DNA of 43,165 nucleotides from an uncultured Candidatus Saccharibacteria bacterium (lineage in GTDB: Bacteria; Patescibacteriota; Minisyncoccia; JAHIHE01; DAOWLE01): positions 1 to 43,165 of the forward strand of contig CAYSEG010000008.1 of NCBI GenBank assembly GCA_964430135.1. Reading direction: 5' to 3'. Below are positions 4,372 through 40,008 of this stretch, one piece after another; the stretch's first letter is position 1; each line of letters starts with the position of its first letter. Position numbers and translations under genes: made by a program. Under the pieces are notes generated by a model. The model was not told where the DNA came from. It saw only the letters and a list, made by a program, of their open reading frames with translations, and did not search any database.

Positions 4372-6069
4372 TTATAACACCTTATAAATTACTGCTTTTT
4401 CGTTTTTATAAACCGGCTTTAAATATTCCATTTTTTCCGGATGAAAGTTTTCTAGATTGTAGTTAGAGAAAAATTTTGGAGAGTAATCAGGGAAAAGATC
4501 TGAAGAGTAGTCGGTGAAGAGCTCTGGAGAATATAGAAAATAAGCAATTTTGTATTTTTTTAAAAATTTATATTTTTGCTCTTTTTTTTCATCATCTTCA
4601 ATGAAATGTTTTAATTGGTTCATTTTTTTTGAAATATTTATAGTACGAGGAATATAGCCCGCAAAAACTATATTGCCGGACAACCCGGGGATAAGATTAC
4701 TGATTGAATATCCTGAAAGGACTATTTCTGAAGAATGAGTATTGTTTTTTAGCCAATCTACAGCTTCAAGATAAGATTTATCTAAATAAATAGGACAGGC
4801 AAGATAAATTTTTATATTTTGATCCTGATTTTTAGAAAAATAATCATATAGGGCAATATCAGTTAGCACGACATTAATATTGGAGAGAGATGTAAAAGAT
4901 ATTATGATAGAAAAAAAGATAACCTTTACTTTCTGAAAGGAAAAAGAAAATCCTTTTTGCGTCCATTTGTTTTTAAGATAATCTGAAAGAAGGAATAAAC
5001 CGAGAGTAGCTAAAATGACCATTGGGATATGCAAACCTTCGGTAAATTTTCTCTGAAATGGTAAAAATGACTGAGACGAAAGAAAGGAAGATGCAATTAT
5101 CCATGCTAATATAAAAAAAGAATTCCAATTTTTATTTTTAATAATTTTTAATATTCCTATTAGAGCTAAGAAAAAAATTAAGCCAAAGCCAGATATATAA
5201 CCCAGAAAGGATTTATTAAAAGTAATTCCTCCTTTTTCAAACCACCATTTAAGAGACGGACTATTGTTAATAGCATAATAATTATAAAGAATACCTGGCA
5301 AAAGAATTACTGCCATTATGAAGCAATATTTCAAAGTTATTTTTGGTTTCAAGTCCTTAATTAGAAATTTAAGAAATATAAAAAATCCAATAGTCAGCCA
5401 GACTATGAAAATATCATAAGTATGAATTAAGGAAAGGCTTAAAAGCGCTATACCTGATCCAACAGCATACTTTAACTTTGGATTTTTAAAAAATTCGAGA
5501 GTTAAGATGAATATAATGAGTATTAAAATTAGGGAGAGCAAATTAAGCGGTGATTCTAAAAGATTTAAGAAAGTAATTGTTTCTATCTGCCAAAGGTCAA
5601 TAGAGTAGTTTCCGGCTATCCAGCCGAATCCAGAGGAAAAAGTAAGAAGCAGAAAACATACCCCCCGCTTCAAAATGCCTTTTAAAAAATAAGAAATAAA
5701 TATATAGGCAATAAATAAGAATATAAAACCAAAAAATATTCTGAAAAGATGATAAGTAAAGATATTTGAAAAGTTGAAAATTCTGGCAAAATGCCCCATT
5801 GCCAGAAAAAGAGGATGAAAAAGAATTCTTCTTTGCGGTTCTACGCAGTATGGATCCTTGAATAAAAAGTGTCCTTCATTAGCTTGTTGAATCCAGGCGA
5901 TATAAGTGTAAGTATCACAAGTATTTATTTGGTGTTGCCCCATAAATTGAAAATTAGGCGGGGTAATATGGATAGCATAAAGATAAGGAAGTAATGTAAT
6001 ACTCATTATAATTATTGAAAAAACAAGGACAAAATACCATTCTTTTTTGGGAATAAAAGGAATAGACAT
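4372..6069 (-). CDS. polytopic membrane protein, putative GT-C-type glycosyltransferase
   Basis: 565 aa with many TM helices. The ATG overlaps the stop of the upstream gene by 1 nt (TAATG), which suggests translational coupling. Confidence 0.4.
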   Translation of the reverse strand: MSIPFIPKKEWYFVLVFSIIIMSITLLPYLYAIHITPPNFQFMGQHQINTCDTYTYIAWIQQANEGHFLFKDPYCVEPQRRILFHPLFLAMGHFARIFNFSNIFTYHLFRIFFGFIFLFIAYIFISYFLKGILKRGVCFLLLTFSSGFGWIAGNYSIDLWQIETITFLNLLESPLNLLSLILILIIFILTLEFFKNPKLKYAVGSGIALLSLSLIHTYDIFIVWLTIGFFIFLKFLIKDLKPKITLKYCFIMAVILLPGILYNYYAINNSPSLKWWFEKGGITFNKSFLGYISGFGLIFFLALIGILKIIKNKNWNSFFILAWIIASSFLSSQSFLPFQRKFTEGLHIPMVILATLGLFLLSDYLKNKWTQKGFSFSFQKVKVIFFSIIISFTSLSNINVVLTDIALYDYFSKNQDQNIKIYLACPIYLDKSYLEAVDWLKNNTHSSEIVLSGYSISNLIPGLSGNIVFAGYIPRTINISKKMNQLKHFIEDDEKKEQKYKFLKKYKIAYFLYSPELFTDYSSDLFPDYSPKFFSNYNLENFHPEKMEYLKPVYKNEKAVIYKVL

Positions 6070-6434
6070 TATGATTTAGAGACTAAAAATACTCCTAAGC
6101 AAATAATAATAACTCCGATTAAACGAAGAGGAGTAATATGCTCATTGAATAAAAATACAGAAGAAATTAAAACTAAAACAAATGAAAGACTCATAAAAGG
6201 ATAGATATAACTTATTTCTTTTTTAGATGCCGCAGCCATATAAGTAAAGCTTCCTAAGAAAGCTAAAACGAGACTTAAAATCACATATCTGTTAGATAAT
6301 GATTTTATAAAAAACGGGGTAATTTGTGAAAAATCCATCGGAAACTTTCCGACAATATTCATTCCATGCTTTAAAATTAACTGTCCGGCCGCTGTAAATA
6401 GAATTGTAATAAGTATCAGCAAATAGACTATCAT
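6069..6434 (-). CDS. ArnE/ArnF-like small EamA/SMR-type flippase subunit
   Basis: 121 aa with 4 TM helices. TAAGQLILKHGM and YIYPFMSLSFVLVLISSVFLFNEHITPLRLIGVIIICLGVFLVS match E. coli ArnE (AGQLCQKQA ... [43 protein letters not shown]) as I recall it. Confidence 0.6.
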   Translation of the reverse strand: MIVYLLILITILFTAAGQLILKHGMNIVGKFPMDFSQITPFFIKSLSNRYVILSLVLAFLGSFTYMAAASKKEISYIYPFMSLSFVLVLISSVFLFNEHITPLRLIGVIIICLGVFLVSKS

Positions 6435-6437
6435 TTT

Positions 6438-7565
6438 TTATTTTTTTATTATATCAATAACTGAACGAATAATATATCTAACTTCTTTGCGGGTTAATTT
6501 AGGATAAAGAGGAAGGGTAATGGTGCTCGCGCCTATTTTTTCAGCATTAGGATACATCCCTTTTTTATATCCATATTTTTTTCTATAATATTTCATTAAA
6601 TGAATTGGTCTAAAATTTACAGCTATCCCTATTTCTTTTTTTTGAAGTTGGTGTATTATTTTATCTCTTTTCTTTGGGTCCACTTGGATTGTGTAGATAT
6701 ATCTAGCTGGTTTTGTCTTTGGTAAAATTTCTGGAATTTGTATATTTTTAATATTTTTAAAAGCATTATTATAAATTTGACAAATTTTCTCTCTTTTTTT
6801 TAATCGTTCTTCTATCTTGTCTAATTGATTTAATAACATCGCTGCTTGAATGTTGGTCATATTATATTTCCAACCCAGAAATTCCATATCGTAATGTTGA
6901 TATTTTTTACTATATCGTTCAGCAGCGCTTTTACTCATGCCATGAAGTCTTGCTTTTTTTAGCCATTCAGCAATATTTTTGTCGTTAGTAACAACTGCTC
7001 CTCCTTCTCCCGAGGTAATATTTTTAATAGCATAAAAACTAAAGGAGGCTGTATTTCCTATTTGTCCGGCTCGATATCCATCTCTTTGGGCTTCTAAAGA
7101 ATGTGCTGCATCTTCTATTATAATAAGATTATATTTATTAGCAATCTTTTGGATTTTTTTCATATCGCAAAGCTGTCCGTAAAGATGAACAGGGATAATA
7201 GCTTTAGTTTTTTTAGTAATTGCTTTTTCAATTAAATCTGCATTTATATTTCCAGTGTTTTTTTCTACATCAACAAAGACTGGTTTGGCGCCAGTAAATT
7301 CAATTGCGTTAGCAGTAGAGATAAATGACATTGGGCTGGTAATAACTTCATTATCTTTGCCGATGCCGTAAGCTAAAAGAGAAAGATGAAGAGCGGCAGT
7401 GCAACTAGTAAGGCCAACAGCATATTTTACCCCTAAGTACTTAGCTAATTTATTCTCAAATTCTCCTACTGTTTCTCCAGTAGTCAAAAATAGAGAATTA
7501 AGAACTTTATTAACGTTTTCTATGTCTTTTTTTTCTAAATTGTGTTTAAAAAAATCTACTTTCAT
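6438..7565 (-). CDS. DegT/DnrJ/EryC1/StrS-family PLP aminotransferase (ArnB-like sugar 4-aminotransferase)
   Basis: SFYAIKNITSGEGG (PLP-binding Lys), AIIPVHLYGQ, IIEDAAHS. Overlaps the upstream gene by 4 nt. Confidence 0.9.
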   Translation of the reverse strand: MKVDFFKHNLEKKDIENVNKVLNSLFLTTGETVGEFENKLAKYLGVKYAVGLTSCTAALHLSLLAYGIGKDNEVITSPMSFISTANAIEFTGAKPVFVDVEKNTGNINADLIEKAITKKTKAIIPVHLYGQLCDMKKIQKIANKYNLIIIEDAAHSLEAQRDGYRAGQIGNTASFSFYAIKNITSGEGGAVVTNDKNIAEWLKKARLHGMSKSAAERYSKKYQHYDMEFLGWKYNMTNIQAAMLLNQLDKIEERLKKREKICQIYNNAFKNIKNIQIPEILPKTKPARYIYTIQVDPKKRDKIIHQLQKKEIGIAVNFRPIHLMKYYRKKYGYKKGMYPNAEKIGASTITLPLYPKLTRKEVRYIIRSVIDIIKK

Positions 7566-9208
7566 TTTTTATTTACTTTAAAGAAATAAAATTTTTGGTT
7601 ACATTTTTCATATTTAGTATAATCAAAAGTCGCTTCATCGGTAGCTAATAGAGAGTATTTATCAGGATTGCTAAGAAGATAGTTTTGTATATCAAGGTAC
7701 TCTAATATCTTATTCTTATATGGTATTTCACAATAAGAAAACTTTTTAAGATTAGTTTCCTCTAAAAATATCATATCACAATTTTTACTAAAAATAAAAA
7801 AGTCTATTTTGATAATTTTTTCTAATTTTTTTAATTCTTCTATATTTTTAGGCGGATGCCAGATGATCTTAATTGGGTAGTTTTGCCAAGCGTATAAAAA
7901 AGTATAAGGGGATACAATAACTTGTGGATTATACGCTTCTATATTTTTGTCTATCATTTGCGAAATAAGCGACTGTTCTTTATATTCCCTTTCTATTTTA
8001 TTTTTCATTTGGATAACGGAAATAATGTCTACAGATAAAAAAATAATAAATAGGCCGCTTATCAGAACCATCTTTTTTATTTCTTTATTGTTTAATTTAG
8101 ATAGATAATTTTCAAGAAATATTGAAAAATATATCAGAAGAAAAGGAATAAACCATAATAATATTCTTGTTTCTATTCTGTTCAATACACTGTAAAAAAG
8201 AAATAAAAGCAAAATATTTATTATAAATATAGGAAAAAATAGCCAGAAAAATCTTTTTTGTTTTTCATCACAATATTTATTATATGAAAGCAGAGTGAAA
8301 AAAGCTATTAACCAATAAGAAAACTTTAGAAGATCTTCGCTGTTTATTATTCTAAGGGTAGTCGCTTTATCAAAATTAAAAAGAAAATTTTCTTTGAGGC
8401 CCCATAATTTTTTATAGAAAGTATCCCATGAATTAATAATATTAAAATTATTGGGATAAATTTGTCTATCTGCTGAAAAGATTGGAAGGTAAAGAGTAAA
8501 AAATAAAGCTAAAAAAACTAAACTAAATATTATAATATTTCTCAGTCTATTTTCTTTGTTATAAATACAGAGTGAACCGATAACAGGCCATAATAAAAGT
8601 CCAAACGTTTCCCTAAAAAACATTCCAATAATTAAAATTACGGCCAAAATTATTGGTTTTGTATAATTATTTTTAAGTTTTATTAGAAGATAAAAGAATA
8701 AAAGACAGAGAAAAACAATGGAAATTTCAGTCATTACCATATTGGTATACAGCCAAAATACTGGAAATAAAATAAATAAAACAATTGATAGATTTCTGGC
8801 TTTTATATTTTTGTCAAGTAATTCTTTTGAGAGAAAATAAAATATAGCAATAGAGGTTAAATATAATAAAAAATTAGGCAGTAAAGCTATATAGTCATTG
8901 ACTCCGAATATTTTAAAGAAAACTGCCACAAGAGTAGAAAAACCAGGCATATGAAATGGTCTATCAAAGCCGCCATTTTTTATTATACTTTCGGTTATAT
9001 AAAGATTTGACGAAATTTCTCCTTTAAAAGCTATATTTCTGGCAGTTAGAGCGTATTCTATTTCATCAGAGTGTGAAATTTGTTGAAATAAAAATAAATT
9101 AGAGACAATTAAAACAATTGTCCCTAATAATAGACAGGTTTTAAGATTGATTGATTTATTTTTATATTTTTTGAAATAATTAAAAAAAGAAGTCGCTGAA
9201 CTATTCAT
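7562..9208 (-). CDS. GT39/GT83-family (ArnT/PMT-like) polyprenyl-phosphate-sugar-dependent glycosyltransferase
   Basis: 548 aa, polytopic. First periplasmic loop SDEIEYALTARNIAFKG: a DE..YA..A motif typical of ArnT/PMT enzymes. Confidence 0.65.
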   Translation of the reverse strand: MNSSATSFFNYFKKYKNKSINLKTCLLLGTIVLIVSNLFLFQQISHSDEIEYALTARNIAFKGEISSNLYITESIIKNGGFDRPFHMPGFSTLVAVFFKIFGVNDYIALLPNFLLYLTSIAIFYFLSKELLDKNIKARNLSIVLFILFPVFWLYTNMVMTEISIVFLCLLFFYLLIKLKNNYTKPIILAVILIIGMFFRETFGLLLWPVIGSLCIYNKENRLRNIIIFSLVFLALFFTLYLPIFSADRQIYPNNFNIINSWDTFYKKLWGLKENFLFNFDKATTLRIINSEDLLKFSYWLIAFFTLLSYNKYCDEKQKRFFWLFFPIFIINILLLFLFYSVLNRIETRILLWFIPFLLIYFSIFLENYLSKLNNKEIKKMVLISGLFIIFLSVDIISVIQMKNKIEREYKEQSLISQMIDKNIEAYNPQVIVSPYTFLYAWQNYPIKIIWHPPKNIEELKKLEKIIKIDFFIFSKNCDMIFLEETNLKKFSYCEIPYKNKILEYLDIQNYLLSNPDKYSLLATDEATFDYTKYEKCNQKFYFFKVNKK

Positions 9209-9224
9209 TATTTCATTTTATTTT

Positions 9225-10262
9225 TCAAAATATTCTATTTTTATATTTAACCTCTCGTAAAATTTTATCCGTTTCAATTAAATATTTGTAATAATCTACC
9301 GTTTTCGTTTTGATATCATCTGTTATTTTTCTTTTTTCTAATGCATCTTTTATTTCTTTAATTCCATCCTCAATATCCTTTTGTGGTCTAAAGCCTAATA
9401 CTTTTTGGATTTTAGAAAAATTAACATTATAACTTCTTTTATCTGGATCACTTGGAACATTCTCAATTATTGCGTTTGGAATATTTTTTTTAATTAAATT
9501 AGCCACTTCATAAACTTGATAATTTTGTTGGTTAGATCCAATATTAAATATTTCTCCATTAATCTTTTTTTTGTCAGCTTCCAGAATCAATATAAAAGCT
9601 CTAATTAAATCTTGGAGATGGATAAGCGGTCGCCATTGTTTTCCTCCCCCAGTGATAAATATTTTTTTATTTTTAAAGGCATGAAGAGTCATAATATTTA
9701 TAATTAAATCAAAACGCATTCTTTTGGATATTCCGTAAACAGTCGCATTTCTTTGACAGGTAAGACAGAAGTTACCATCAGCTAAACTTAGTAATTTTTT
9801 TTCTGTTTTAAGCTTTAATTTAGCATACAGCGAAACGGGAGATGTCTTAGATGATTCATCTAATTGTAAATTTTCACCTTGGCCATAGACACTACAAGAG
9901 GAGGAAAAGATATATCTTTCTACTCCCATTTCTTTAGCTATTTTTGCCGTCCTTGTTGATCCTTGAAAATTTATAGAATAAGTTATTTTAGGATTGAGAT
10001 CACAGGACGGATCATTTGAGATAGAAGCCAAATCAATAACCCCATAGACATTTTTTAGGATTTCTTTTGGAAAATATCTAATATCTTCTTTTATAATTTC
10101 TATGTTAGGATTGCCTAAGTATTCGTCAAGGGCCTCTATTCCAAAGAAAAATCGATCAAGAGCTTTTACTTTATAACCTTTTTTTAAAAGCTGGCCTACT
10201 AATTCTGAGCCAATGTATCCTCCAGCGCCGGTAACAAGAATTGTTTTTTTATTTATATTCAT
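9225..10262 (-). CDS. extended-SDR NAD-dependent epimerase/dehydratase (UDP-glucuronate decarboxylase / ArnA C-domain-like)
   Basis: TGAGGYIGSEL Rossmann motif, SSSCSVYG, YAKLK (YxxxK), TGGGKQWRPLIHLQD (cf. ArnA DGGKQKRCFTDIRD), GEIFNIGS. Confidence 0.7.
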   Translation of the reverse strand: MNINKKTILVTGAGGYIGSELVGQLLKKGYKVKALDRFFFGIEALDEYLGNPNIEIIKEDIRYFPKEILKNVYGVIDLASISNDPSCDLNPKITYSINFQGSTRTAKIAKEMGVERYIFSSSCSVYGQGENLQLDESSKTSPVSLYAKLKLKTEKKLLSLADGNFCLTCQRNATVYGISKRMRFDLIINIMTLHAFKNKKIFITGGGKQWRPLIHLQDLIRAFILILEADKKKINGEIFNIGSNQQNYQVYEVANLIKKNIPNAIIENVPSDPDKRSYNVNFSKIQKVLGFRPQKDIEDGIKEIKDALEKRKITDDIKTKTVDYYKYLIETDKILREVKYKNRIF

Positions 10263-10325
10263 ACTTTGTAAATAACGTATAAATTTTAACGAGAATTTTA
10301 ATCATTTTTTATTTTGATAAAAATT

Positions 10326-11054
10326 TCAATTAGGAGTGAACCATTTATGATAAACTAATTTGGCATCGTAGATTCTAAAACCAATTTTTTGGTAAAGTCT
10401 TTGGGCAGATATATTTTCTCCTTCTGTAGTAACTTCTATTTCATCTATATTTTTTGAGTTAAACCATTTTATACTTTCGTTTATTAATAATTTTCCATAT
10501 CCTTTTCCTTGATATTCTGGAAGTACTCCAATTAGATCAATTATTCCAATTTTATTTTTAATTTTACAGCTAATAAATCCGTAAATTTCATTCTTTATTT
10601 TTAAAACAATGATTTTATCAGCGTATCCTTTTAAAGAATTTTTTATCCATTCCCTATATATTTTTCTTGAGATATTTTTCTTTATTTTCTTGTCTTTATA
10701 AAAACGGCTTGTTTTCCCCACATAATTATTTATCTGAATTAGTTTTTTTATATCAGAAATTTTAGCATCTTCTAACTTTATATTTCTGGGAATGGAATTC
10801 AATTTATTATTTCTTTTTTTAAGATTTAAGTTATAGCCAACTTTAATATTTATTAAATCAAATTTATTCTCTTGAGCAATATTAATGGTATTGTAGTTGA
10901 TATTTACAAAACAAAAAAGACAAGAAAGATTTATTTTTTTACATTCGTCTAAAATTTTTCCAATATTTTTTTTATTCAAAGAATTAATATTTAATTTTCC
11001 AATATTCTTTTTAAATATTTTACTGTCCCATTCTAGATATTGAATATAGTTCAT
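10326..11054 (-). CDS. GNAT-family N-acetyltransferase (WecD-like aminosugar N-acetyltransferase candidate)
   Basis: C-terminal GNAT core IGVLPEYQGKGYGKLLI ... AQRLYQKIGF. Placed between the SDR and the GT2 gene. Confidence 0.7.
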   Translation of the reverse strand: MNYIQYLEWDSKIFKKNIGKLNINSLNKKNIGKILDECKKINLSCLFCFVNINYNTINIAQENKFDLINIKVGYNLNLKKRNNKLNSIPRNIKLEDAKISDIKKLIQINNYVGKTSRFYKDKKIKKNISRKIYREWIKNSLKGYADKIIVLKIKNEIYGFISCKIKNKIGIIDLIGVLPEYQGKGYGKLLINESIKWFNSKNIDEIEVTTEGENISAQRLYQKIGFRIYDAKLVYHKWFTPN

Positions 11055-11058
11055 AGAT

Positions 11059-11988
11059 TTATTTTATAAACTCATTAATAGAATAAAGCGGTCTTTTTTT
11101 TGTCTCAATATAATTTCTTCCTATATATTCTCCTAAAATACCAATCATTATTAGTTGAATTCCTCCTAAGAAAAATATTGAAACAATCAAAGAAGACCAT
11201 CCAGAGATAGCGGTGCTATAAATTATTTTTTTGAGTATAAAATAAGTTCCTAATATGAAAGAAATCAATGAGATAGATATTCCTATTAAAGTAGTCATCC
11301 TTAAAGGTAAAATAGAAAAGGAGAAAACAGCATCAAATGTTAATTTTAACATTTTGAATAGAGAGTATTTTGTCTTACCCCTGAATCTTTTATTATGATT
11401 TATTTCTATTCCTGTCTGTTTAAATCCTACATAACCAAATAATCCAATTATATATCGATTAGTTTCTCTGCATTTGTTTAATTCTAAAACTACTTTTCTT
11501 TTCATTATACGAAAAATAGTATTGTTAATTTCTATTTTTTCTTGAATGATTTTTTTTATTAAAAAAACAAAAATCTTTGAGGTTATCCTTTTAAACAATT
11601 TATCTTGTCTATTTTTTTTAATTCCATATACTATATCATATCCTTTGTTTAGTTTATTTAATAATTTAGGAATTTCTTCGGGTTGATCCTGCAAATCTCC
11701 ATCCATTAAGACTACCAATTTTCCAGTGCAATGATCTAATCCAGCAGTGATGGCAATGTGGTGTCCAAAATTACGAGAGAATTGAATGATTTTAACATTA
11801 TTGTCTATTTTATGTAATTCGTTTAATATTTCAAAAGATTTATCAGTGCTGCCGTCATCAACAAATATCATTTCATAAGTCTTCCTCAAATTCAGCAAAA
11901 CTTTAAATAGCCTTCTATAAAGTTCTTTTAAGTTTTCTTCTTCATTATAAATGGGAATTATAATTGAAATTTCAGTTGTTTTGTTCAT
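11059..11988 (-). CDS. GT2 polyprenyl-phosphate sugar transferase (ArnC/GtrB/DPM1-like)
   Basis: SIIIPIYNEEENL, VDDGSTDKS, DGDLQDQP, plus two C-terminal TM helices: the classic ArnC/GtrB architecture. Confidence 0.85.
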   Translation of the reverse strand: MNKTTEISIIIPIYNEEENLKELYRRLFKVLLNLRKTYEMIFVDDGSTDKSFEILNELHKIDNNVKIIQFSRNFGHHIAITAGLDHCTGKLVVLMDGDLQDQPEEIPKLLNKLNKGYDIVYGIKKNRQDKLFKRITSKIFVFLIKKIIQEKIEINNTIFRIMKRKVVLELNKCRETNRYIIGLFGYVGFKQTGIEINHNKRFRGKTKYSLFKMLKLTFDAVFSFSILPLRMTTLIGISISLISFILGTYFILKKIIYSTAISGWSSLIVSIFFLGGIQLIMIGILGEYIGRNYIETKKRPLYSINEFIK

Positions 11989-11999
11989 GAATATAAAAT

Positions 12000-13676
12000 T
12001 TAAAGATGTTTTATCTTCCAGATTTCAGTATCTTCATTTTGATAGGTCTTTTTAAATTTACTATCATTATTTAAGATATTTCTAAGGTTTTGATACTTTG
12101 ATTTACCACCGATAAAAATATACTCGGCTTTGAATTTTTCTTTGATAACTTGAGAAATAGGTTTATCTTTTTGGGGAACTTTGCATTCTGGCAAACTGCA
12201 GATAATTCCTTCTTCGCTGATATGCCGCCAGAGCCAGTATTTCTGAGGGTCGGCTACATACATAAAAGTCGGATCCATTCCTATTATATAATAATTATGA
12301 TGATTATAAAAGAATAATTGCGGAAAATTTCCCCAGTTGGCATTAAAGACAATTGATCCTTGAGGAGTATTTTTATTCAGCCATTCAGCAGCATCTTTGT
12401 ATTGATCATATTTTATTCCCTGATCAATCGCCCATGAAGCATAAGAAATGTTGGCTAATACTAAACCAAGCAGAGTTATCGCGGTGAAAAATTTAATAAT
12501 TTTTTTATTAGTTTGCTTCTTTAGTGTTATTGCGGGCGACTGAAGGGAACGTGGTAATGACAGCCGGGTTAACGAATCTACCCCAAAAGCTCCAAAAAGT
12601 ACAGTAAACGGCACCCAGTATTCAACAAAACGGTTGGCTTTGAGGGTTAGAACGAAAAAGAAAAGAGAAATGATAAAAAGCGAATAGAGAATTACTTTTT
12701 TGTCGTTTCGATCCGCTTGCTCTTTTGTCATTGCGAACGAGCCCGAATAGGGCGAGCGTGGCAATCCCGTATTTTCGCGGGATTGCTTTGTCGTTCCGCT
12801 TCTCGTAATGACAGAGGAGATAATGCCGATCGCAAAACATATCAAAACAAGCAAATTCGCGCGGGCAAAGTTGGCAAGGTCAGCGATTGGAAACCATTCC
12901 ATTCCTACGGGGATAGAGTGGAATATTCCTGCCTTGAAAATTTGTATATAAAGATAATAAAAATTTTTTGGAAAATAAGGATTAATGATTAATCCTCCTA
13001 ATAGTCCAATTCCGGAATAAATTAATAATTTTAGACCTGGCTTCCTGTTAATAAATAAATTTAAGCAGAAGAAAGAAAAAATGAAAAAGAGTAATATTAA
13101 AGAAGCTCCATATGTCCAGGAATACAAGAAAGATAAAACAAAAAGAAGAAAATATTTCTTTTTGATTATAAGATAGAAGCCTAAAAATAAGAATATTATT
13201 GAAATACTTTGGGTTTTAAGTAAATTTAGTCTAAAAATAAAAATTTGAGAGGCGCAGAATAATAAAATTGTCCAGAAAAAAGTAGATTTTATTTTATTTT
13301 GTTTTAATATCCAATAAAAAACTAAAAAGACGAGGCTGTTAAAAATAATTGTGGCTAATTTTGCTCCAAAGATTAAATCTCCATAAGTAAAAGGAACTAA
13401 AAGAATATGGAATAAAAAGTGAAAATCAGAAAAATTGTCTTTCCAGATAGTAAATTGCAGCCAGGGAAAATTATTAATAAACCCCTGTGTTCTTAAAAGA
13501 TAAGCGTTTTTTATGTGATAATAACCATCAGCCCCGGCCAAATTAGGAGTAGAAAATTGTATAAGAGAAAATATGATAAAAAAAAGTATGAAAACAGATA
13601 AATAAGGAATATATTTTTTGATTAGTAAAAAATTCATATTAAGTAAAAAATACTTTGATTTACTTAATTGTATCAT
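12000..13676 (-). CDS. polytopic membrane protein (putative glycosyltransferase) carrying an in-frame repeat-element insertion
   Basis: 558 aa with many TM helices. The loop RSGTTKQSRENTGLPRSPYSGSFAMTKEQADRNDKK is encoded by a GC-rich palindromic element (see repeat 12697-12814). Confidence 0.4.
   Translation of the reverse strand: MIQLSKSKYFLLNMNFLLIKKYIPYLSVFILFFIIFSLIQFSTPNLAGADGYYHIKNAYLLRTQGFINNFPWLQFTIWKDNFSDFHFLFHILLVPFTYGDLIFGAKLATIIFNSLVFLVFYWILKQNKIKSTFFWTILLFCASQIFIFRLNLLKTQSISIIFLFLGFYLIIKKKYFLLFVLSFLYSWTYGASLILLFFIFSFFCLNLFINRKPGLKLLIYSGIGLLGGLIINPYFPKNFYYLYIQIFKAGIFHSIPVGMEWFPIADLANFARANLLVLICFAIGIISSVITRSGTTKQSRENTGLPRSPYSGSFAMTKEQADRNDKKVILYSLFIISLFFFVLTLKANRFVEYWVPFTVLFGAFGVDSLTRLSLPRSLQSPAITLKKQTNKKIIKFFTAITLLGLVLANISYASWAIDQGIKYDQYKDAAEWLNKNTPQGSIVFNANWGNFPQLFFYNHHNYYIIGMDPTFMYVADPQKYWLWRHISEEGIICSLPECKVPQKDKPISQVIKEKFKAEYIFIGGKSKYQNLRNILNNDSKFKKTYQNEDTEIWKIKHL
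12697..12814. repeat. family-A palindromic element (copy A1) inserted in frame inside a CDS
   Basis: TGTCATTGCGAACGAG ... CTCGTAATGACA terminal inverted repeats. Internal hairpins GCCCgaataGGGC and GCAATCCCGtattttcgCGGGATTGC. GC content is far above the flanking sequence. The insertion keeps the reading frame and falls between two TM helices. Confidence 0.65.
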
Positions 13677-13761: not shown

Positions 13762-14640
13762 TTAATTTGTGTATACTCTGACATTATCAAAGTGTACTTT
13801 TGGCCTGCCCCACACGGATTTTAGTCCGACTGTGGAGTAACTTCTTCCATTTAAGGGATTGGGATCATAGAAGTGTGCGACTCTTTTGCCGTCAACGAAG
13901 AGAGAAATATCTCCGCCTATTCTTTGCGCTTTGATGTGATAGATTTTTCCCGGTCTTACTAATTCGTTTTTGTTCTCATCCATAAAGTAGTTATTTCTGA
14001 GAATTGATGTCTTGGTGTTACTGTTTCCTCCGAAAGCGAATGTGTAGCCGATGTCAGGGTTATAATCTGTTCCTATAGTACATTCTATGCCTGCGCTAGG
14101 ATTATTTTTGTCGGTATAAGCGTCAAATTCCAGGATTACATCTCCTGGGAATTTTTTTTCTAAAATAACCCACATTCCTGCGCATTGGTTTTTCTCACCG
14201 CTTAGTTCTCCGTTTTTCATTGCCCAGTTTCCGGATTTAACTATCCAATTGCGATTTTCTTCTTGATTAAATTTATCTTCAAAGACGAGAACGAAGTTTC
14301 TGGAGTTTTTAGAAATAACTTTTTCAGCCGGCCCGTCATAATTACTGACAACAGAGGCAATTACTACTATTACAACAATTACTGTTATCACTCCAATAAC
14401 TGTCCCCCAAGGGGTTTTCTTTAGTGCTTGTGTTGTTGGTGCTCCTATAATTTCTGGTTTTTCTCGACTTATTATGAAATCTGCGACTACTATGATTATT
14501 CCCAGAAAAAAAGATATTCCTGCTATTGTTCCGATTGGCAAATTAGTAAAAATTACTAAGATGCCAGTAATGAACATTGGAATGACCAACAGCTCTATTC
14601 CTATCTTTCTCGTATCTATCTTTTCTATGTCCATATCCAT
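13762..14640 (-). CDS. membrane-anchored protein with a C-terminal concanavalin/LamG-like jelly-roll domain (DUF1080-like?)
   Basis: An N-terminal domain of 3 TM helices followed by a beta-rich domain (WAMKNGELSGEK ... ILEFDAYTDKNNPSAGIE). Family assignment is tentative. Confidence 0.3.
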   Translation of the reverse strand: MDMDIEKIDTRKIGIELLVIPMFITGILVIFTNLPIGTIAGISFFLGIIIVVADFIISREKPEIIGAPTTQALKKTPWGTVIGVITVIVVIVVIASVVSNYDGPAEKVISKNSRNFVLVFEDKFNQEENRNWIVKSGNWAMKNGELSGEKNQCAGMWVILEKKFPGDVILEFDAYTDKNNPSAGIECTIGTDYNPDIGYTFAFGGNSNTKTSILRNNYFMDENKNELVRPGKIYHIKAQRIGGDISLFVDGKRVAHFYDPNPLNGRSYSTVGLKSVWGRPKVHFDNVRVYTN

Positions 14641-16317: not shown

Positions 16318-16451
16318 CAAGTGTCCAGCACATAATGGACTAAGTGAAAAATTAAAAATTCAAAATGAAAAATGACAAACTAAAAATTAAAAATAAAGAG
16401 GAAAAGAATAAACCAAAACAGCAAAAATTAACTGTTGAAATTCTTGATAAG

Positions 16452-16732: not shown

Positions 16733-16873
16733 ATGACCAAATCCCAAATCTCAAGCCCCAAATCCCAATTATTTTTTATTTTCGGCGTTAGCGATCCCTT
16801 GCGGGACTTATTTGGAATTTATGATTTAGAATTTGGTTGGTCATTGGTCATTGGGGTTTGGGATTTTAAACCT
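16733..16873. repeat. family-E palindromic element, copy E1 (left arm flanking the recombinase gene)
   Basis: AAATCCCAATGACCAAATCCC ... cggcgttagcgatcccttgcgggacttatttgg ... TTGGTCATTGGTCATTGGGGTTTGGGATTT. The ends are mutually inverted. The CCAAATCCCAA sub-repeat is duplicated relative to E2. Confidence 0.75.
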
Positions 16874-16927
16874 TCAGTTAGAAATTTGTCAATTTTTAAT
16901 ATAAAAGTTCAATAGTTCAATTACCTC

Positions 16928-17866
16928 TTATTTCCTTTTCCTCTGTTTTCCATGAAATGCCTGATGGATTTTCTTGAGGTGTTTATCGGTAATATGTGTA
17001 TAGATTTGAGTTGTAGTAATACTAGAATGTCCCATAAGAAGTTGAACCGAGCGAATATCTGCTCCGCCCAAAAGGAGGTCTGTTCCAAAAGCATGCCTTA
17101 ATGAGTGAGGGGTTATTTTTTTGGTAATTCCAGCGCTGGCAGCATATTTTTTAACAATTCTCTGAATACTTCTTGGCGTTAGTCTTAAAGAGGCAGTCTT
17201 ACTGGTTTTTACCGTTTTGATAAATAAAGCAGGATCAGTATCTGTTCGTTTTTCTAAGTATTTTTTGAGAGCTTCTTGAGACTCTTTTGATAAAAAAACA
17301 ATTCGCATTTTGTCTCCTTTGCCTCGAATACTGAATTCTCCTTTTTTTAAATTAATTGTTTCCCGATTTAAAGCTGTTAATTCCGAAACTCTAAGCCCGG
17401 TTGAAAAAAGCAATTCCAGAATAGCTTTATCTCTGAGTATCTGAAGATTTTCTTTATGACGCGGCTTTAATTTTTCTTTAAGAGGAGCCTCAAGAAGTTT
17501 TTCTAATTCTCTTTCTTCTAAAAATTCAATTTCGTGTTCAGGGGTTTTTCCTAATTCTACTTTTTCAGCGGCCAGGCTTTTGATGTCTATTTTTGATAAA
17601 TATTTTAAAAAACCCCTTAGAGCAATAATATGGTAATTTTGGGTAATTCTTTTTAATTTTCTGTTTTTTTCATCATGCCAGCGGTTTAAATATAGTCTGT
17701 AGTCTCTGACTTTCTTTTCTGTAATTTGCGAAGGTTTGTTTATTTTAGCCCACAAGACAAATCGTCTTAAATAATGATCATAGTTTTCAATAGTTTTTTG
17801 ACTTCGGTTTTTCTCAATTTCAAGATACTGGAGGTAGTCGGTGATAAGGGAGTTGATGGGGTTCAT
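16928..17866 (-). CDS. XerC/XerD-family tyrosine site-specific recombinase
   Basis: N-terminal core-binding region (LEIEKNRSQKTIENYDHYLRRF). C-terminal catalytic region with R (GLRVSEL), HSLRHAFGT and LLMGHSSITTTQIYTH (the Tyr nucleophile). Confidence 0.85.
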   Translation of the reverse strand: MNPINSLITDYLQYLEIEKNRSQKTIENYDHYLRRFVLWAKINKPSQITEKKVRDYRLYLNRWHDEKNRKLKRITQNYHIIALRGFLKYLSKIDIKSLAAEKVELGKTPEHEIEFLEERELEKLLEAPLKEKLKPRHKENLQILRDKAILELLFSTGLRVSELTALNRETINLKKGEFSIRGKGDKMRIVFLSKESQEALKKYLEKRTDTDPALFIKTVKTSKTASLRLTPRSIQRIVKKYAASAGITKKITPHSLRHAFGTDLLLGGADIRSVQLLMGHSSITTTQIYTHITDKHLKKIHQAFHGKQRKRK

Positions 17867-17924
17867 ATGGTTTTAATTGATTATATTATGAGTTAACTTT
17901 AGCAAATCTCCTACTTAAAGTTAA

Positions 17925-18047
17925 AAATCTTAAACCCCAGTGACCAATGATCAACCAAATCTTAAATCATAAATTCTAAATAAGTCCCGCAAGGGATCGC
18001 TAACGCCGAAAATAAAAAATAATTGGGATTTGGTCATTGGAATTTTA
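17925..18047. repeat. family-E palindromic element, copy E2 (right arm, inverted relative to E1)
   Basis: Its reverse complement aligns with E1 at about 95% identity over roughly 120 bp, through ...aattattttttattttcggcgttagcgatcccttgcgggacttattt. Confidence 0.75.
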
Positions 18048-18502: not shown

Positions 18503-18637
18503 TGTCATTGCGGCGAGGGGGCTTTAACCCCGAAGCAATCCCATAGGAAAGGATAAGATTTTCATATAAGAAAAAATATAATAATGTATTTATAAGGAAA
18601 TTGCCTCGTCGTCCTTCGGATTCTTTACAATAATGAC
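18503..18637. repeat. family-A palindromic element (copy A2) immediately after the rpsO stop
   Basis: TGTCATTGCGGCGAGGGGGCtttaaCCCCgaagcAATCCC ... GGATTctttacaataATGAC. Same modules as A1 and A3, but a longer AT-rich central loop. Confidence 0.55.
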
Positions 18638-18654
18638 TTATAATTTGTATTTTT

Positions 18655-19188: not shown

Positions 19189-19296
19189 ATTTGTTGGTTT
19201 ATATTTATTGGTTTAATCGTCCCGATTGAACCATAAGTTTAGTTTTCTTGGTAATCAAAACATTAAGGTTCAGTCGTGGACGACTGAACCAACGGA
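19189..19296. repeat. family-B double-hairpin element (copy B2)
   Basis: TTGTTGGTTtatatttattGGTTTAATCGtcccGATTGAACC ... aatcaaaacattaa GGTTCAGTCGtggaCGACTGAACCAACGG. Confidence 0.7.
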
Positions 19297-25352: not shown

Positions 25353-25429
25353 GGGGCCATTAGCTCAGTTGGTTAGAGCGCGATCCTTATAAGGTCGATG
25401 TCCCTGGTTCGAGTCCAGGATGGCCCACC
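25353..25429 (+). tRNA. tRNA-Ile with a UAU anticodon
   Basis: GGGCCAT/ATGGCCC acceptor. D-arm TAGCTCAGTTGGTTAGAGC, typical of bacterial tRNA-Ile. Anticodon stem CGATC/GGTCG with loop CTTATAA. T-arm CCTGG-TTCGAGT-CCAGG. CCA is encoded. Confidence 0.8.
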
Positions 25430-25470
25430 AAAGGTTCCGCACATAAATTATATGCGGAACTAAATTCAAA

Positions 25471-25899
25471 ATGCAAAATTACAAATCAAAATTTAAAAAG
25501 AAGCATCAACACACTTTGGCTATAGCTAGCGCTTTTATTGAAAAAAATAAGAAATATCTTTTAATTTACGATCCAAGATTTAGTTGTTGGAGAGTTCCGG
25601 GCGGCAAAGTAGATTTTGGCGAAAGAATTGAAAATGCTCTTCAAAGAGAAATAAAAGAAGAATTAGGAGTGAAAATTATTATAGATGGATTTTTAGGTTT
25701 CGGACAGGATCAGATGATTTTTAAAAAGAAATTTCAAACATCAAGAGCTGTCTTTTATTTTAAGTGTAAAACAAAATCTAGTAAAATTAATCCTAACCAG
25801 AGAGAAATTTCAAGATATAAATGGCTATCTTTATCCGAAATTAAAAAGCATAGAAATTTAGAAGGAGCAATGAAAGATTATTTTAGAAGATTTCGTTAA
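25471..25899 (+). CDS. NUDIX hydrolase
   Basis: Nudix box GGKVDFGERIENALQREIKEELGV. Confidence 0.8.
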   Translation: MQNYKSKFKKKHQHTLAIASAFIEKNKKYLLIYDPRFSCWRVPGGKVDFGERIENALQREIKEELGVKIIIDGFLGFGQDQMIFKKKFQTSRAVFYFKCKTKSSKINPNQREISRYKWLSLSEIKKHRNLEGAMKDYFRRFR

Positions 25900-28858: not shown

Positions 28859-28972
28859 AAAAAGTCAAAAGTCAAAAATCAAAATTCAAAAATAAAAGTT
28901 AAAATTCAAAAGTGATTATAAAAATTTTGACTTTTGAATTGAACTTTTGCTTTTGCCTTTTACCTTTTGAAT
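28858..28972. repeat. family-D 7-bp-periodic A-rich imperfect palindrome (copy D1)
   Basis: AAGTCAA|AAGTCAA|AAATCAA|AATTCAA|AAATAAA|AGTTAAA|ATTCAAA - central loop - TTTTGAC|TTTTGAA|TTGAACT|TTTGCTT|TTGCCTT|TTACCTT|TTGAATT. Confidence 0.65.
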
Positions 28973-28981
28973 TAAATATAT

Positions 28982-30195: not shown

Positions 30196-30308
30196 GTCAG
30201 TTCAGTCGTCCATTCTGTTAGTTCAATCGTTCACGATTGAGCTACGTGTTTAGTTTTTAGCAATCAAAACATTAAGGTTTAGTCGTGGACGACTAAACCA
30301 ACAGAGGA
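30196..30308. repeat. family-B double-hairpin element (copy B3), abutting the truncated Fic gene
   Basis: cagttcagtcgtcc (partial hairpin), GTTAGTTCAATCGttcaCGATTGAGCTAC, spacer gtttagtttttagcaatcaaaacattaa, then GGTTTAGTCGtggaCGACTAAACCAACAG. Confidence 0.7.
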
Positions 30309-35085: not shown

Positions 35086-35213
35086 TATCATTGCGGGGAG
35101 CCCCTTAAGGGGCGATGAAGTAATCCCGTGCTATTAATACAGGCTTTTTATAAATCTACGGGATTGTTTCATCGTCCTGAAGCATATAGTTCAGGATTTC
35201 TCGCAACAACGGA
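35086..35213. repeat. family-A palindromic element (copy A3) between mreC and mreD
   Basis: TCATTGCGGGGA-GCCCCttaaGGGGC-GATGAAGTAATCCCGT ... ACGGGATTGTTTCATC ... TTCTCGCAACAA. Nested inverted repeats, GC-rich. It ends 3 nt before the mreD ATG. Confidence 0.65.
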
Positions 35214-37660: not shown

Positions 37661-37690
37661 GCGAACTTTTTGATTAATTTAATAAGATAA

Positions 37691-37804
37691 GAAAAAGTCA
37701 AAAATCAAAATTCAAAACTAAAAGTCAAAAATCAAAAGTGAATTATTTGAAACTTTTAACTTTTAACTTGAACTTTTAGCTTTTGAATTTTGCATTTTGA
37801 ATTT
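37691..37804. repeat. family-D 7-bp-periodic A-rich imperfect palindrome (copy D2)
   Basis: AAAGTCA|AAAATCA|AAATTCA|AAACTAA|AAGTCAA|AAATCAA - loop - TTTTAAC|TTTTAAC|TTGAACT|TTTAGCT|TTTGAAT|TTTGCAT|TTTGAAT. Confidence 0.65.
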
Positions 37805-37807
37805 GTT

Positions 37808-38292: not shown

Positions 38293-40008
38293 ATGAGCTT
38301 AACGGTTATTTTTATAATTTTATCTTTTTTATGGTTTTTACGGACAATTAGAGCCGCGCTTTTTAATGTTTGGATTTGGCAAATTAAAGAATATCGGCTT
38401 GACAGAATGTGGGCTCACTTGAGTATTTTAAGTGGCAAGAGATTATTTCTTAATTGGTTAAATATTATTAAATTAGGACTTCTTGTTCTCTTTCCGTTGT
38501 TTTTACTTCTAAGGCCGTTTCTTTTTTTAGGGTTAGTTATTATTCTCTTTTCTTTAGAATCATTTTTAGGATTCAAAGAATTTCTGGATAAACGATTTTA
38601 TCGGCCGAAATTTACTCCTAAGGCGACGATAATTTTGGCTGGAACTGTTGGAATTGAAATCATTATTGTTTTTTTCTTGACTTATATTTTATTTGAAGGA
38701 GCGTTCTTTGGGTTGAGATTTACTTTATTATCTATAGGTAATTTAAATGAAGTTATACAATATACTTCTATTAGCTGTTTTTCTTTTTTATTTCTAATAT
38801 TGAGTGTTGTTCTGCCGTTAATTGTTTTTCTTTTGGTATTAGTTCTTAACCCGATAACAAAATTATTTAAAGCGAGAACGATTAAAAAAGCAAAAAAGAA
38901 AATAAAGAAATTTTCGAATCTTATTGTAATTGGAATTACTGGAAGCTATGGCAAAACTTCAACAAAAGAATTTTTAGCAACAATTCTAGCTGAGCGTTTT
39001 AATGTTTTAAAAACAATTAAAGCCAATACTGATATTGGCGTGGCGAAAACTATTCTTGAAAAATTAAAACCAGAACATCAAATTTTTGTTGTGGAAATGG
39101 GAGCTTATAAGCGAGGGGAAATTAAGGCAATTTGCGATATTGTAAAGCCGAAGATTGGAGTTTTAACCGGAATCAATGAACAACATTTGGCACTTTTTGG
39201 AGGGTTGGAGAATACGATAAGAGCGAAATTTGAGCTGATTGAGGCGTTGCCGGAAGATGGGTTGGGGGTAATAAACAAAAAGTTAAAAGTTTCCGCCTTC
39301 GTCCCTGCTGGGACTACGACGGACAAGCAAAATTCAAAGTTCAAAGTTGCAGTTAAAAGTTTAAAGTTTTTTTCTGGTAGCGAAAAATCAGATATTTATG
39401 CGAGTGATATAATAATTGAAAAAGATAAAATCAAATTTAAAGTGATAAACGGCGAGGAGAGCGAGGATTTTGAAGTTAGTTTAATCGGCAAGCAGAATGT
39501 TTCAAATATCTTGGCTTGTGTGGCTGTGGCTGAATATTTAGGAATGACTTTAAAAGAAATTTCTAAGGCAGCGAAGAAAATTAAGCCGATTGAGAAAACA
39601 ATGAAAGCTTATCAAGGAATTAATGGAATAACCTTGATTGATGATACTTATAATGCTAATCCGGCCGGTGTTTTGGCGGCTTTGGATTATTTGAAAATTT
39701 GGAAGGGCAGAAAAGCGATTGTGATGCCCTGTTTGATTGAGCTGGGAAGTACGTCAAAGGATGTTCATCAGAGAATCGGCGCGAAAATCGGCGAGAACTG
39801 CGATTTGGCGATTATTACCAAGAAAGAGTGTTATGAAGATATTAAAAAAGCCGCTTGCGAGAACGGGATGGATAAACAGAATATTTTGCTTTCGCAGGAC
39901 CCGCGGGAAATTTTTGAAAAATTAAAAAATTTTAACAAGCCCGAAGATGTGATATTATTAGAAAGCAGGGTTCCTCAGCAATTGATTGATATGTTGGAAT
40001 TTGAATAA
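38293..40008 (+). CDS. murF: MurF-type Mur ligase fused to an N-terminal polytopic membrane domain of about 200 aa
   Basis: Residues 1-200 contain 5-6 TM helices. They are followed by IVIGITGSYGKTSTKEFLATIL (Mur ligase P-loop), GVLTGINEQHLALFGGLENTIRAKFELIE and LIDDTYNANPAGVLAALDYL (MurF C-terminal domain). Confidence 0.75.
   Translation: MSLTVIFIILSFLWFLRTIRAALFNVWIWQIKEYRLDRMWAHLSILSGKRLFLNWLNIIKLGLLVLFPLFLLLRPFLFLGLVIILFSLESFLGFKEFLDKRFYRPKFTPKATIILAGTVGIEIIIVFFLTYILFEGAFFGLRFTLLSIGNLNEVIQYTSISCFSFLFLILSVVLPLIVFLLVLVLNPITKLFKARTIKKAKKKIKKFSNLIVIGITGSYGKTSTKEFLATILAERFNVLKTIKANTDIGVAKTILEKLKPEHQIFVVEMGAYKRGEIKAICDIVKPKIGVLTGINEQHLALFGGLENTIRAKFELIEALPEDGLGVINKKLKVSAFVPAGTTTDKQNSKFKVAVKSLKFFSGSEKSDIYASDIIIEKDKIKFKVINGEESEDFEVSLIGKQNVSNILACVAVAEYLGMTLKEISKAAKKIKPIEKTMKAYQGINGITLIDDTYNANPAGVLAALDYLKIWKGRKAIVMPCLIELGSTSKDVHQRIGAKIGENCDLAIITKKECYEDIKKAACENGMDKQNILLSQDPREIFEKLKNFNKPEDVILLESRVPQQLIDMLEFE
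39278..39372. repeat. heptamer-flanked GC-core palindromic element inserted in frame in murF
   Basis: AAAAGTT|AAAAGTT-tccgccttcGTCCCtgctGGGACtacgacggacaagc-AAAATTC|AAAGTTC|AAAGTTG|CAGTTAA|AAGTTTA|AAGTTTT. It encodes KKLKVSAFVPAGTTTDKQNSKFKVAVKSLKFF. The core resembles the family-E core atCCCTTGCGGGACt. Confidence 0.55.

Follow-up and report, generated by a model that had tools for sequence, protein, structure and literature searches.

Why does a gene for a membrane protein in an AT-rich bacterial genome contain a GC-rich DNA palindrome that is translated in frame, where did the palindrome come from, and does the gene have any use for it? These questions are raised by a 43,165-nt stretch of DNA (the window) from an uncultured Candidatus Saccharibacteria bacterium (contig CAYSEG010000008.1), in which the palindrome lies within an open reading frame (ORF) on the – strand at 12000–13676. 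An original prediction placed it in a 118-bp element and likened its behaviour to that of the Rickettsia palindromic elements (RPEs). The account that we favour, with a probability of roughly 0.75 for the whole of it, is that the palindrome is a neutral, decaying and non-autonomous insertion resembling a repetitive extragenic palindrome (REP), which is tolerated in a permissive loop of a GT-C-fold glycosyltransferase; under this account the 29 residues that it encodes would be a disordered, functionally neutral appendage, and the DNA palindrome at this site would be decaying by mutation, largely from GC to AT.

The palindrome and its host gene

The features of the gene and of the element within it are as follows.

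12000–13676, strand –: host gene, encoding a 558-aa polytopic membrane protein with a predicted GT-C glycosyltransferase fold (STT3/PglB/AglB-like; AlphaFold2 and Foldseek)
12726–12813, no strand: palindromic element proper, 88 nt, GC 0.53, two inverted arms forming a dimer
12726–12736, no strand: left terminus and outer stem TGTCATTGCGA, comprising the TGTC tag and ATTGCGA; pairs with 12803–12813
12803–12813, no strand: right terminus and outer stem TCGTAATGACA; pairs with 12726–12736 (outer stem of 11 bp)
12741–12753, no strand: left-arm local hairpin GCCC-GAATA-GGGC (predicted fold), corresponding to the variable module of the repeat family
12760–12787, no strand: central stem-loop GGCAATCCCGT / ATTTTC / GCGGGATTGCT (predicted fold and covariance model)
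12697–12725, strand –: flank encoding KEQADRNDKKV, previously counted as part of the element
12530–12567, no strand: possible short derivative in the same gene, encoding residues 370–383

The element (full sequence TGTCATTGCGAACGAGCCCGAATAGGGCGAGCGTGGCAATCCCGTATTTTCGCGGGATTGCTTTGTCGTTCCGCTTCTCGTAATGACA) is real, but it occupies 88 nt, and the span of 12697–12814 first given for it is 29 nt too wide. The inverted termini and the two internal hairpins described in the original prediction are found at the positions listed, and the central stem of 11 bp (12760–12770 with 12777–12787) is the conserved GCAATCCC...GGGATTGC core of a dispersed repeat family described below. With an energy of −44.2 kcal/mol (z = −6.4), the predicted RNA fold is more stable than that of any of 200 dinucleotide shuffles. 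The GC content of 0.53 exceeds that of the whole window (0.33) and of the host gene (~0.3), as had been claimed for the flanks. A covariance model (R1) built exclusively from 74 copies in other organisms matches the element over its full length (1–97 of 97) and on both strands, with 54.8 bits and E 7e-11. Three of the six frames of the element are open, and the host ORF does read through it without a stop.

The host protein has no match in Pfam or in a sequence search of the PDB, and its assignment comes from a structural model (pLDDT 85.4, pTM 0.87). Foldseek comparison of this model with the PDB identifies human and yeast STT3 (E 2e-8, TMq 0.62) as well as PglB and AglB, and the host protein is, by predicted structure, a GT-C-fold (STT3/PglB-like) glycosyltransferase. 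The element on the – strand encodes 29 residues, V289–T317 (VITRSGTTKQSRENTGLPRSPYSGSFAMT), spanning the end of predicted helix H275–301 and the loop preceding H318–346. The extra segment thus does lie between transmembrane (TM) helices as proposed, but it has 29 residues and not ~38. Inside the model, pLDDT falls below 50 only at 296–314, within the insert, and at 378–380, within the possible short derivative. A GT2 gene at 11059–11988 adjoins the host gene and follows it. The wider neighbourhood is a glycosylation cluster with GT2, PMT_2-family (GT-C) paralogs, a DegT aminotransferase, an epimerase and an acetyltransferase (5862–10831 in locus L124; 7562–9208 in the window). Strains L124 and L126 have a different sequence for the final ~35 residues of the host protein, and other genes lie downstream of it, which indicates a recombination breakpoint at the 3′ end of the gene.

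Comparison with orthologs, the check proposed alongside the original prediction, shows the loop to be lineage-specific. The insert is present in 10 of 10 orthologs with at least 90% identity (from ENA, JGI, NCBI and Logan assemblies). In an alignment of 22 homologs there is a gap opposite the element residues in P0002, the closest non-conspecific ortholog (50% identity, 509 aa), and most of the other homologs likewise do not have them. In the same loop, ortholog P0003 (54% identity; locus L003) carries another GC-rich insert, of ~50 residues (L003 ~1480–1655; GC 0.47 in a gene of GC 0.31), which contains several small hairpins including TCCCCCTGATCCCCTTTACAAAGGGGGA, encodes ...IPLIPFTKGEL and is unrelated to the window element. 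Because a 54%-identical ortholog has a different insert at the same place, the inter-helix loop is permissive and, judged from these sequences, a recurrent landing site for repeats.

The P0003 gene also locates one edge of the element. Its host sequence downstream of the insert is shared with the window (AACGACAAAAAA(G/A)TAATT), which places the end of the element at 12726; since the coding strand of 12697–12714 (AACGACAAAAAAGTAATT) is common to this ortholog with its different insert, at least that part is host DNA, while 12715–12725 may be of host or of element origin. The flank has weak local similarity to the right arm of the element (TTTGTCGTTTCG against TTTGTCGTTCCG), which is matched by 42 of 2000 shuffles. 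A reading of 12697–12725 as a frame-restoring partial duplicate of an arm (88 + 29 = 117 nt, or 39 codons) was rejected for at least 12697–12714 on the grounds of the sharing with L003 and the shuffles.

Host and element share microhomology at both junctions (12814–12822 and 12697–12725), which at the left one consists of TCATT. Where the element starts (T)GTCATTACG, orthologs lacking it have ATCATTAAC or TGTATTATT, and host flank GAAACGACAAAAAAGTAAT is similar to element arm GGAACGACAAAGCAAT, the window arm being nearer to the flank than is the more canonical arm of L124. This microhomology may reflect a target preference, gene conversion or coincidence.

The possible short derivative at 12530–12567 has, in sister strains, the form TGTCATT-N24-AATGACA, in which the outer termini are kept and the centre is missing. 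By chance, 0.01 occurrences of the pattern TGTCATT-N15-45-AATGACA would be expected per window. The covariance model gives it no significant score (9.6 bits, E 2.3, at 12525–12562). We infer from the sequence pattern that it may derive from the same element.

A comparison of the host gene among five strains at the DNA level gives the following proportions of variable columns.

12726–12813, element: 15.9%
12697–12725, flank: 13.8%
12525–12567, short derivative: 11.6%
remaining 1400 nt of the gene: 3.0%

The element is therefore about five times as variable as the rest of the gene, and C>T and G>A account for many of its changes. Pairwise ratios of nonsynonymous to synonymous polymorphism (pN/pS) are 0.64–1.8 in the insert and 0.19–0.45 in the core (from small counts), and the amino-acid differences among strains are concentrated in the insert (e.g. 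PRSP vs SCSS, FAMT vs LATA). The host ORF is intact in independent assemblies from all four sources, which together with the core pN/pS indicates a functional gene under purifying selection. The insert itself is under no detectable constraint. Changes in the stems occur without compensating substitutions, and the hairpin energy ranges from −49 kcal/mol in L124, the most canonical (GAGGAGCGAAGCGAC), to −24 kcal/mol in L125, the most decayed. Between the window and sister strain L001 the element is identical and the genes differ at 1.5% of positions; as ~1.3 changes would be expected over 88 nt at that divergence, the identity is unremarkable.

The repeat family and its described relatives

Running model R1 over the window with filters off, which makes the E-values rough, confirms both intergenic copies that had been claimed at 18503–18637 and 35086–35213, with slightly shifted ends, and yields nothing significant beyond these three copies.

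18503–18638, no strand: degenerate intergenic copy with an AT-rich 60-nt centre; 21.3 bits, E 4e-3
35086–35211, no strand: degenerate intergenic copy; 26.2 bits, E 3e-4; fold z = −5.6

The first fills the spacer between rpsO (S15, ending at 18492) and an NYN-domain gene (starting at 18655) and is conserved in L001; the second fills the spacer between mreC (ending at 35083) and mreD (starting at 35217). A contig 99.6% identical to the window and extending 10 kb past its right end has two further copies (67 and 37 bits), giving five copies in ~53 kb of this strain with scores from 67 to 21 bits and GC contents from 0.55 to 0.37. The copies thus differ in age: some are GC-rich and close to the canonical form, others degraded and enriched in AT. 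In two sister lineages, whose FtsH is 73% identical, one weak copy is seen in 43.7 kb. The organism is a member of the Patescibacteria: the best named matches of its FtsH, at 65–68% identity, are all labelled 'Patescibacteria group' or 'Candidatus Portnoybacteria'. Situated directly after stop codons in operon spacers, the intergenic copies may act on transcripts, as has been proposed for REPs. Several short called proteins are mere translations of the repeat (of the CHCER..., ...SRND and ...LAMT types), at 13986–14177 in L130 and at 12717–12992 (+) and 12622–12840 (–) in the window, and short hypothetical proteins on repeat copies are likely to be spurious wherever the family occurs.

Outside this genome, when one genome of each bacterial species is scanned with the pattern TCATTGCG-N15-35-GCAATCCC-N4-34-GGGATTGC, at least 120 loci are found, against ~3 expected by chance as estimated from the size of the collection. 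The matches listed include many Patescibacteria (Magasanik-, Morani-, Komeili-, Falkow- and Kerfeldbacteria) and, beyond them, Acetobacteraceae and other Alphaproteobacteria, Gamma- and Deltaproteobacteria, Bacteroidota, Nostoc, Melainabacteria, Chloroflexota, Bacillota, Nitrospiraceae and Gemmatimonadales. Further copies thus exist both in this strain and in many phyla. Neither of the two outcomes named beforehand as damaging to the original prediction, namely distant orthologs that keep the loop without the palindrome or a lack of additional copies, was encountered.

The consensus of 74 complete copies has a left half TGTCATTGCGAG(G)-variable-CG(A/T/C)(A/G)GCAATCCC-variable loop and a right half GGGATTGC(T/C)(T/A/G)CG-variable-CTCGCAATGACA. 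Bases fixed by the search pattern are invariant by construction; the features independent of it are an outer T...A pair, the GAG and CG junction bases, and stem-extending pairs that vary on both sides (columns 54–87: CG 27, GC 17, AU 11). Each arm follows the plan TGTC-ATTGCGAG-small variable hairpin-CGAAGCAAT-CCC, with two arms placed head-to-head in a four-way architecture of outer stem, two variable arm hairpins and central stem. The variable modules comprise 73 distinct sequences among 79 copies and, again independently of the pattern, fold into small local hairpins of unrelated sequence (means of −5.65 and −4.43 kcal/mol vs −2.62 and −1.96 for shuffles). Of the 79 copies, 55 have T and 20 have C before GTC, and singleton arms also occur as remnants.

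No target-site duplication is seen in the 79 copies: direct repeats at the 79 junction pairs have lengths of 0 nt (57), 1 nt (17), 2 nt (4) and 3 nt (1), which is the chance level. About 2.5 of six frames are open per copy and the length is a multiple of three in 20 of 80 copies; because few frames are open and lengths are not biased towards threes, intragenic copies are a subset filtered by selection. Copies that lie in frame, defined by an open frame of at least 60 codons on both sides of the copy in the fetched loci, are the following.

L007 and L114: in UvrA
L071: two copies in one gene, RecG
L104: in arginyl-tRNA synthetase ArgS
L043: in an O-antigen-ligase-like membrane protein
L034: in two genes of Candidatus Magasanikbacteria GW2011_GWC2_37_14
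L044: in a large repetitive protein

In the L007 UvrA, ~29 residues (SVIASKAKQS...APRNDNNG) are unmatched between two conserved blocks of solved UvrA structures. The family is also present on seven plasmids of a plasmid collection, all of them unannotated, and has three matches among viral contigs, a number that does not make phages an obvious vector. No autonomous version, with distant arms around a transposase ORF, was found in 120 loci of up to 8 kb (the search covered these loci and not public collections); one arm pair in L011 is 2.8 kb apart and encloses unrelated ORFs. A coarse inspection of ~0.9 Mb of flanking DNA finds no transposase near the copies.

The closest described kind of repeat is the CGTC/TGTC-tagged REP dimer, defined as a CGTC-tagged superfamily by Di Nocera, De Gregorio & Rocco (2013, BMC Genomics 14:522; PMC3733652), with the tag often being TGTC. 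Its stems begin with AT, and a CCA tail comes after them; the units are predominantly paired head-to-head across a variable spacer, and such dimers could form one large hairpin. Most copies are intergenic and just downstream of ORFs, where REPs are proposed to act on RNA; they occur in several phyla with no associated transposase, and intragenic ones encode 20–30 residues in uvrA, recB, polA and tRNA-synthetase genes (PMC3733652). The same authors identified RPE-4 and RPE-6 of Rickettsia conorii as CGTC-tagged REPs, noted that units with bulges may have escaped detection, and raised the question of how such repeats spread (PMC3733652).

The window copy agrees with these repeats in starting with TGTC and ending with GACA, and in an arm stem that begins with AT (TGTC-ATTGC...GCAAT-CCC); the family agrees in its head-to-head dimers, in intragenic units in genes of the uvrA, recG and tRNA-synthetase type, and in that no transposase was found. 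Unlike the described units, which have stems of 8–9 bp and loops of 4–5 nt, the arm stem ATTGC/GCAAT has 5 bp around 12–40 nt with its own hairpin. In place of the CCA tail there is CCC after GCAAT, which is set by the search pattern and pairs with GGG of the other arm. CGTC repeats were found to be missing in Acetobacteraceae, where the present family is common, and Patescibacteria lay outside that sampling (PMC3733652). On sequence comparison, the family works like CGTC-type REP dimers and is probably related to them. It is not filed under CGTC-1 to CGTC-4 because of the different stem and loop dimensions and its presence in Acetobacteraceae, a separation that we infer from the published text only.

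RPE-1 to RPE-10, reported by Ogata et al. in 2000 and 2002, are said to be palindromes of ~100–150 bp that often lie in frame in Rickettsia housekeeping genes, where they add surface loops. The window element is likewise a palindrome in frame in a functional gene of a small AT-rich genome at a lineage-specific site, and the lineage-specific loop and multi-copy family bear out the RPE-like behaviour first suggested for it. It differs in that the host is a member of the Patescibacteria and not Rickettsia, with one clear intragenic copy of the family in the window. A search of NCBIfam with four frames of the window element and six canonical family peptides gives no match at E up to 10 (HMMER filters may drop very weak ones), and membership of any NCBIfam peptide family is rejected at the level of sequence. 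NCBIfam presumably includes TIGRFAM-derived RPE domain models; provided that the library searched does so, the element is not an RPE by sequence. The RPEs are alike in behaviour but are not the only precedent, since intragenic CGTC REP dimers have also been catalogued across phyla (PMC3733652).

A further comparison is with REPINs, pairs of inverted REPs that form long hairpins. These are reportedly mobilised by RAYT (HUH tyrosine) transposases, as credited to Bertels & Rainey (2011) and Nunvar et al. (2010). Like REPINs, the family has two inverted units with a short spacer, a long hairpin, a dispersed distribution, no target-site duplication and singleton remnants. REPINs occur in tens to hundreds of copies, are species- or genus-specific, and carry a GTAG tag, with a RAYT gene flanked by REPs. 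The present family instead has a TGTC/CGTC tag and an anchor sequence common across phyla, and no RAYT-like gene or Y1/HUH transposase domain is found by Pfam among the window genes. GC-rich hairpins that sometimes lie in frame in AT-rich genomes are also known from fungal mitochondria, as the GC clusters of yeast var1 and the double-hairpin elements (DHEs) of Allomyces; these differ in being organellar, of unrelated sequence, and spread by other proposed mechanisms.

The only Rfam models to reach gathering score in the window are three tRNAs, with nothing relevant at E up to 10 over 12600–12950. In the papers searched we found no report on REPs in Patescibacteria (or the candidate phyla radiation, CPR), and a full-text literature search for the DNA motifs of the element returned only unrelated primer matches. 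What is already known is that selfish palindromic DNA can survive in genes; what is new is Patescibacteria as a host group and, perhaps, that this branched-arm family is recognised and found to be so widely distributed.

How the insertion may have arisen and persisted

In the account that we favour, the element would be a head-to-head dimer of TGTC/CGTC-tagged arms, dispersed in this genome and in many phyla, of which one copy landed in the short inter-helix loop of the glycosyltransferase gene in the ancestor of a species-level lineage. It would have persisted because it preserves the frame, brings no stop into the frame that is read and sits in a loop able to accommodate additional residues; the insertions would have been filtered by selection, and the element would not be built to code. 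Spread may have occurred as folded single-stranded DNA, as for REPs and REPINs moved by HUH tyrosine transposases, or by copying through template switching or recombination. The absence of target-site duplications and the hairpin-plus-tag design favour these modes over cut-and-paste by a DDE transposase, although the mode of spread is deduced from design and not observed. The palindromic design may in addition allow templated repair within a strand, which would keep its two halves alike.

Several points weigh against this account. No mobilising gene was found: the genes of the window and of its extensions include a XerC/D-like recombinase but no transposase, and mobility is accordingly deduced from dispersal. 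There is no near empty site, the closest insert-free ortholog being 50% identical, and the exact ends of the inserted unit are uncertain as a result. The length of 88 nt is not a multiple of three, whereas a TGTC...GAC or GTC...GACA unit of 87 nt would fit. Two of the five strains compared at the DNA level (the window and L001) are identical in the element, so that the statistics depend on 14 variable columns, and no presence/absence polymorphism of the element is found among 10 strains. Finally, this account does not explain why some 20 anchor bases are conserved across phyla, which one would not expect of a parasite that is purely neutral.

The anchor bases raise the thought that all copies belong to a single undescribed pan-bacterial family, with the same ~20 anchor bases and the same four-way architecture; we regard this as doubtful, at a long way short of even odds. 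Were it true, the lack of a transposase and of target-site duplications and the near absence from viruses would imply that the element is copied and maintained by some conserved function of the host (replication, repair or a universal recombinase), or else that there is an unrecognised transfer route of very broad host range, and the recurrent in-frame copies in uvrA, recG and argS would mark where that machinery works.

Among the rival explanations, the best survivor is that the palindrome has been exapted as a cis-acting hairpin that regulates the gene, through a translational pause for membrane insertion, through mRNA stability or processing, or as an internal attenuator. The strength of the fold (z = −6.4) would suit such a role, as would the intergenic copies, which sit right after stop codons and fill the rpsO–NYN and mreC–mreD spacers in the classic REP position (PMC3733652). 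The element is also identical in two strains whose genes differ by 1.5%, but this is what chance predicts for 88 nt (~1.3 changes). Against regulation, the stems have accumulated uncompensated C>T and G>A changes that lower the fold from −49 to −24 kcal/mol, the element is ~5 times more variable than the rest of the gene, and orthologs at 50% identity or less manage without it. We consider a regulatory role unlikely.

Somewhat less likely again is a classical MITE (miniature inverted-repeat transposable element), that is, a deleted insertion sequence (IS) inserted by cut-and-paste, its terminal inverted repeats being recognised by a DDE transposase whose gene lies in another part of the genome. 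Terminal inverted repeats of 11–12 nt, small size and many dispersed copies are in keeping with this, and bacterial MITEs are small non-autonomous repeats that are sometimes located inside ORFs and lengthen the encoded protein; such in-frame fusions are documented and were called 'not unusual' in a 2024 review, with ERIC, BOX, Coxiella QMITE1 and Anabaena MITEb/e as examples (PMC10969869). In MITEs, however, the terminal inverted repeats enclose a core that is not palindromic, and target-site duplications are usual, whereas the present unit is one continuous palindrome of hairpin-bearing arms and not a pair of inverted repeats around an unrelated core. It is chiefly the absence of target-site duplications in 79 copies that sets the family apart from classical MITEs. 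In addition, a longer version bearing a transposase was not found in ~0.9 Mb of flanks, the window has no transposase, and termini conserved across more than 10 phyla are ill-suited to lineage-specific IS families.

The inserted peptide might instead be a functional module gained by the protein, a new cytoplasmic or periplasmic loop to which the palindrome is incidental. A functional role for RPE peptides was reportedly proposed by Claverie and Ogata, and the insert is fixed with its frame kept in 10 of 10 sampled strains. Its pN/pS of ~1 (vs 0.2–0.45 in the core), pLDDT below 50 and radical replacements among strains (PRSP vs SCSS, FAMT vs LATA) point the other way, as does the unrelated insert at the same place in a related lineage, and we think this improbable.

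That there was no insertion, the loop being an ancestral variable one that is palindromic by chance or an assembly artefact, would fit the variable loop length among homologs but is very improbable indeed, being refuted by the homolog alignment, by the match of an independent family model (E 7e-11) to a segment of GC 0.53 in a gene of ~0.3, by strain variation, and by the presence of the same sequence in contigs of at least five independent assemblies and samples.

REP-type palindromes, including in-frame survivors in essential or housekeeping genes, thus extend to the ultra-small AT-rich Patescibacteria. For annotation, GC-rich islands inside Patescibacteria genes can be such repeats and not foreign domains, and short 'hypothetical proteins' on intergenic copies are spurious. 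The permissive GT-C loop, with two different repeats in related lineages and a neutrally evolving insert, offers a natural experiment. The conservation of anchor bases across phyla with no known mobilising enzyme bears on how CGTC-type REPs spread.

Other repeats and genes of the window

Segments of murF (~39280–39370; KKLKVSAFVPAGTTTDKQNSKFKVAVKSLKFF) and femAB (42183–42242; SQKSKVKSQKRNSKCRS) had been put forward as showing the same behaviour, but they are not copies of the element: the covariance model does not match them, and they belong to two other repeat families. The first is a short imperfect GC palindrome, CCGCCTTCGTCCC...GGGACTACGACGG. The second consists of AT-rich palindromes based on CAAAAGT/CAAAATT heptamers, which are scattered through the intergenic regions of the window. 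Its sites are as follows.

945–1004
16346–16405
25462–25502
28863–28973
37689–37805
39325–39369, in murF
42183–42242, in femAB

Heptamer stretches are mostly intergenic and often palindromic with their own complement (e.g. 28865–28973 and 37694–37804); those in frame in murF and femAB encode peptides rich in K, S and Q.

Within murF (38293–40008), positions 39283–39316 hold a GC-rich imperfect palindrome (TTCCGCCTTCGTCCCTGCTGGGACTACGACGGA) that encodes SAFVPAGTTTD and is a third kind of repeat-like sequence inside a gene. Compared with solved MurF proteins, the window protein has an excess of 9–13 residues in the murF segment, which coincides with this palindrome and the adjoining AT-rich repeat; the alignment is compatible with a small repeat-derived insertion. 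The MurF protein has 571 aa, and its first ~200 residues (38293–38900), which replace the N-terminal domain usually found there, are strongly hydrophobic and include several predicted TM segments; homology with solved MurF proteins begins near residue 200.

The XerC/D-like tyrosine recombinase is encoded at 16928–17866 (–), with Phage_integrase and SAM-like N domains, between tRNA-Leu/DUF5654 and rpsO. It is bracketed by 143-nt inverted repeats (16746–16888 and 17903–18045) that are 87% complementary, and the gene with its repeats could be an invertible or mobile cassette. No inversion polymorphism is seen in sister strains L001, L125 and L126, which have the same arrangement and orientation. 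Hairpins of the form GGTTCAGTCGTGGACGACTGAACC, with variants, follow genes at 2710–2745, 19208–19296 and 30254–30305 and are probably a shared terminator-like motif or another small repeat family. A tRNA-Ile gene with anticodon TAT (UAU) is present at 25354–25430; most bacteria read AUA with a modified CAU tRNA.

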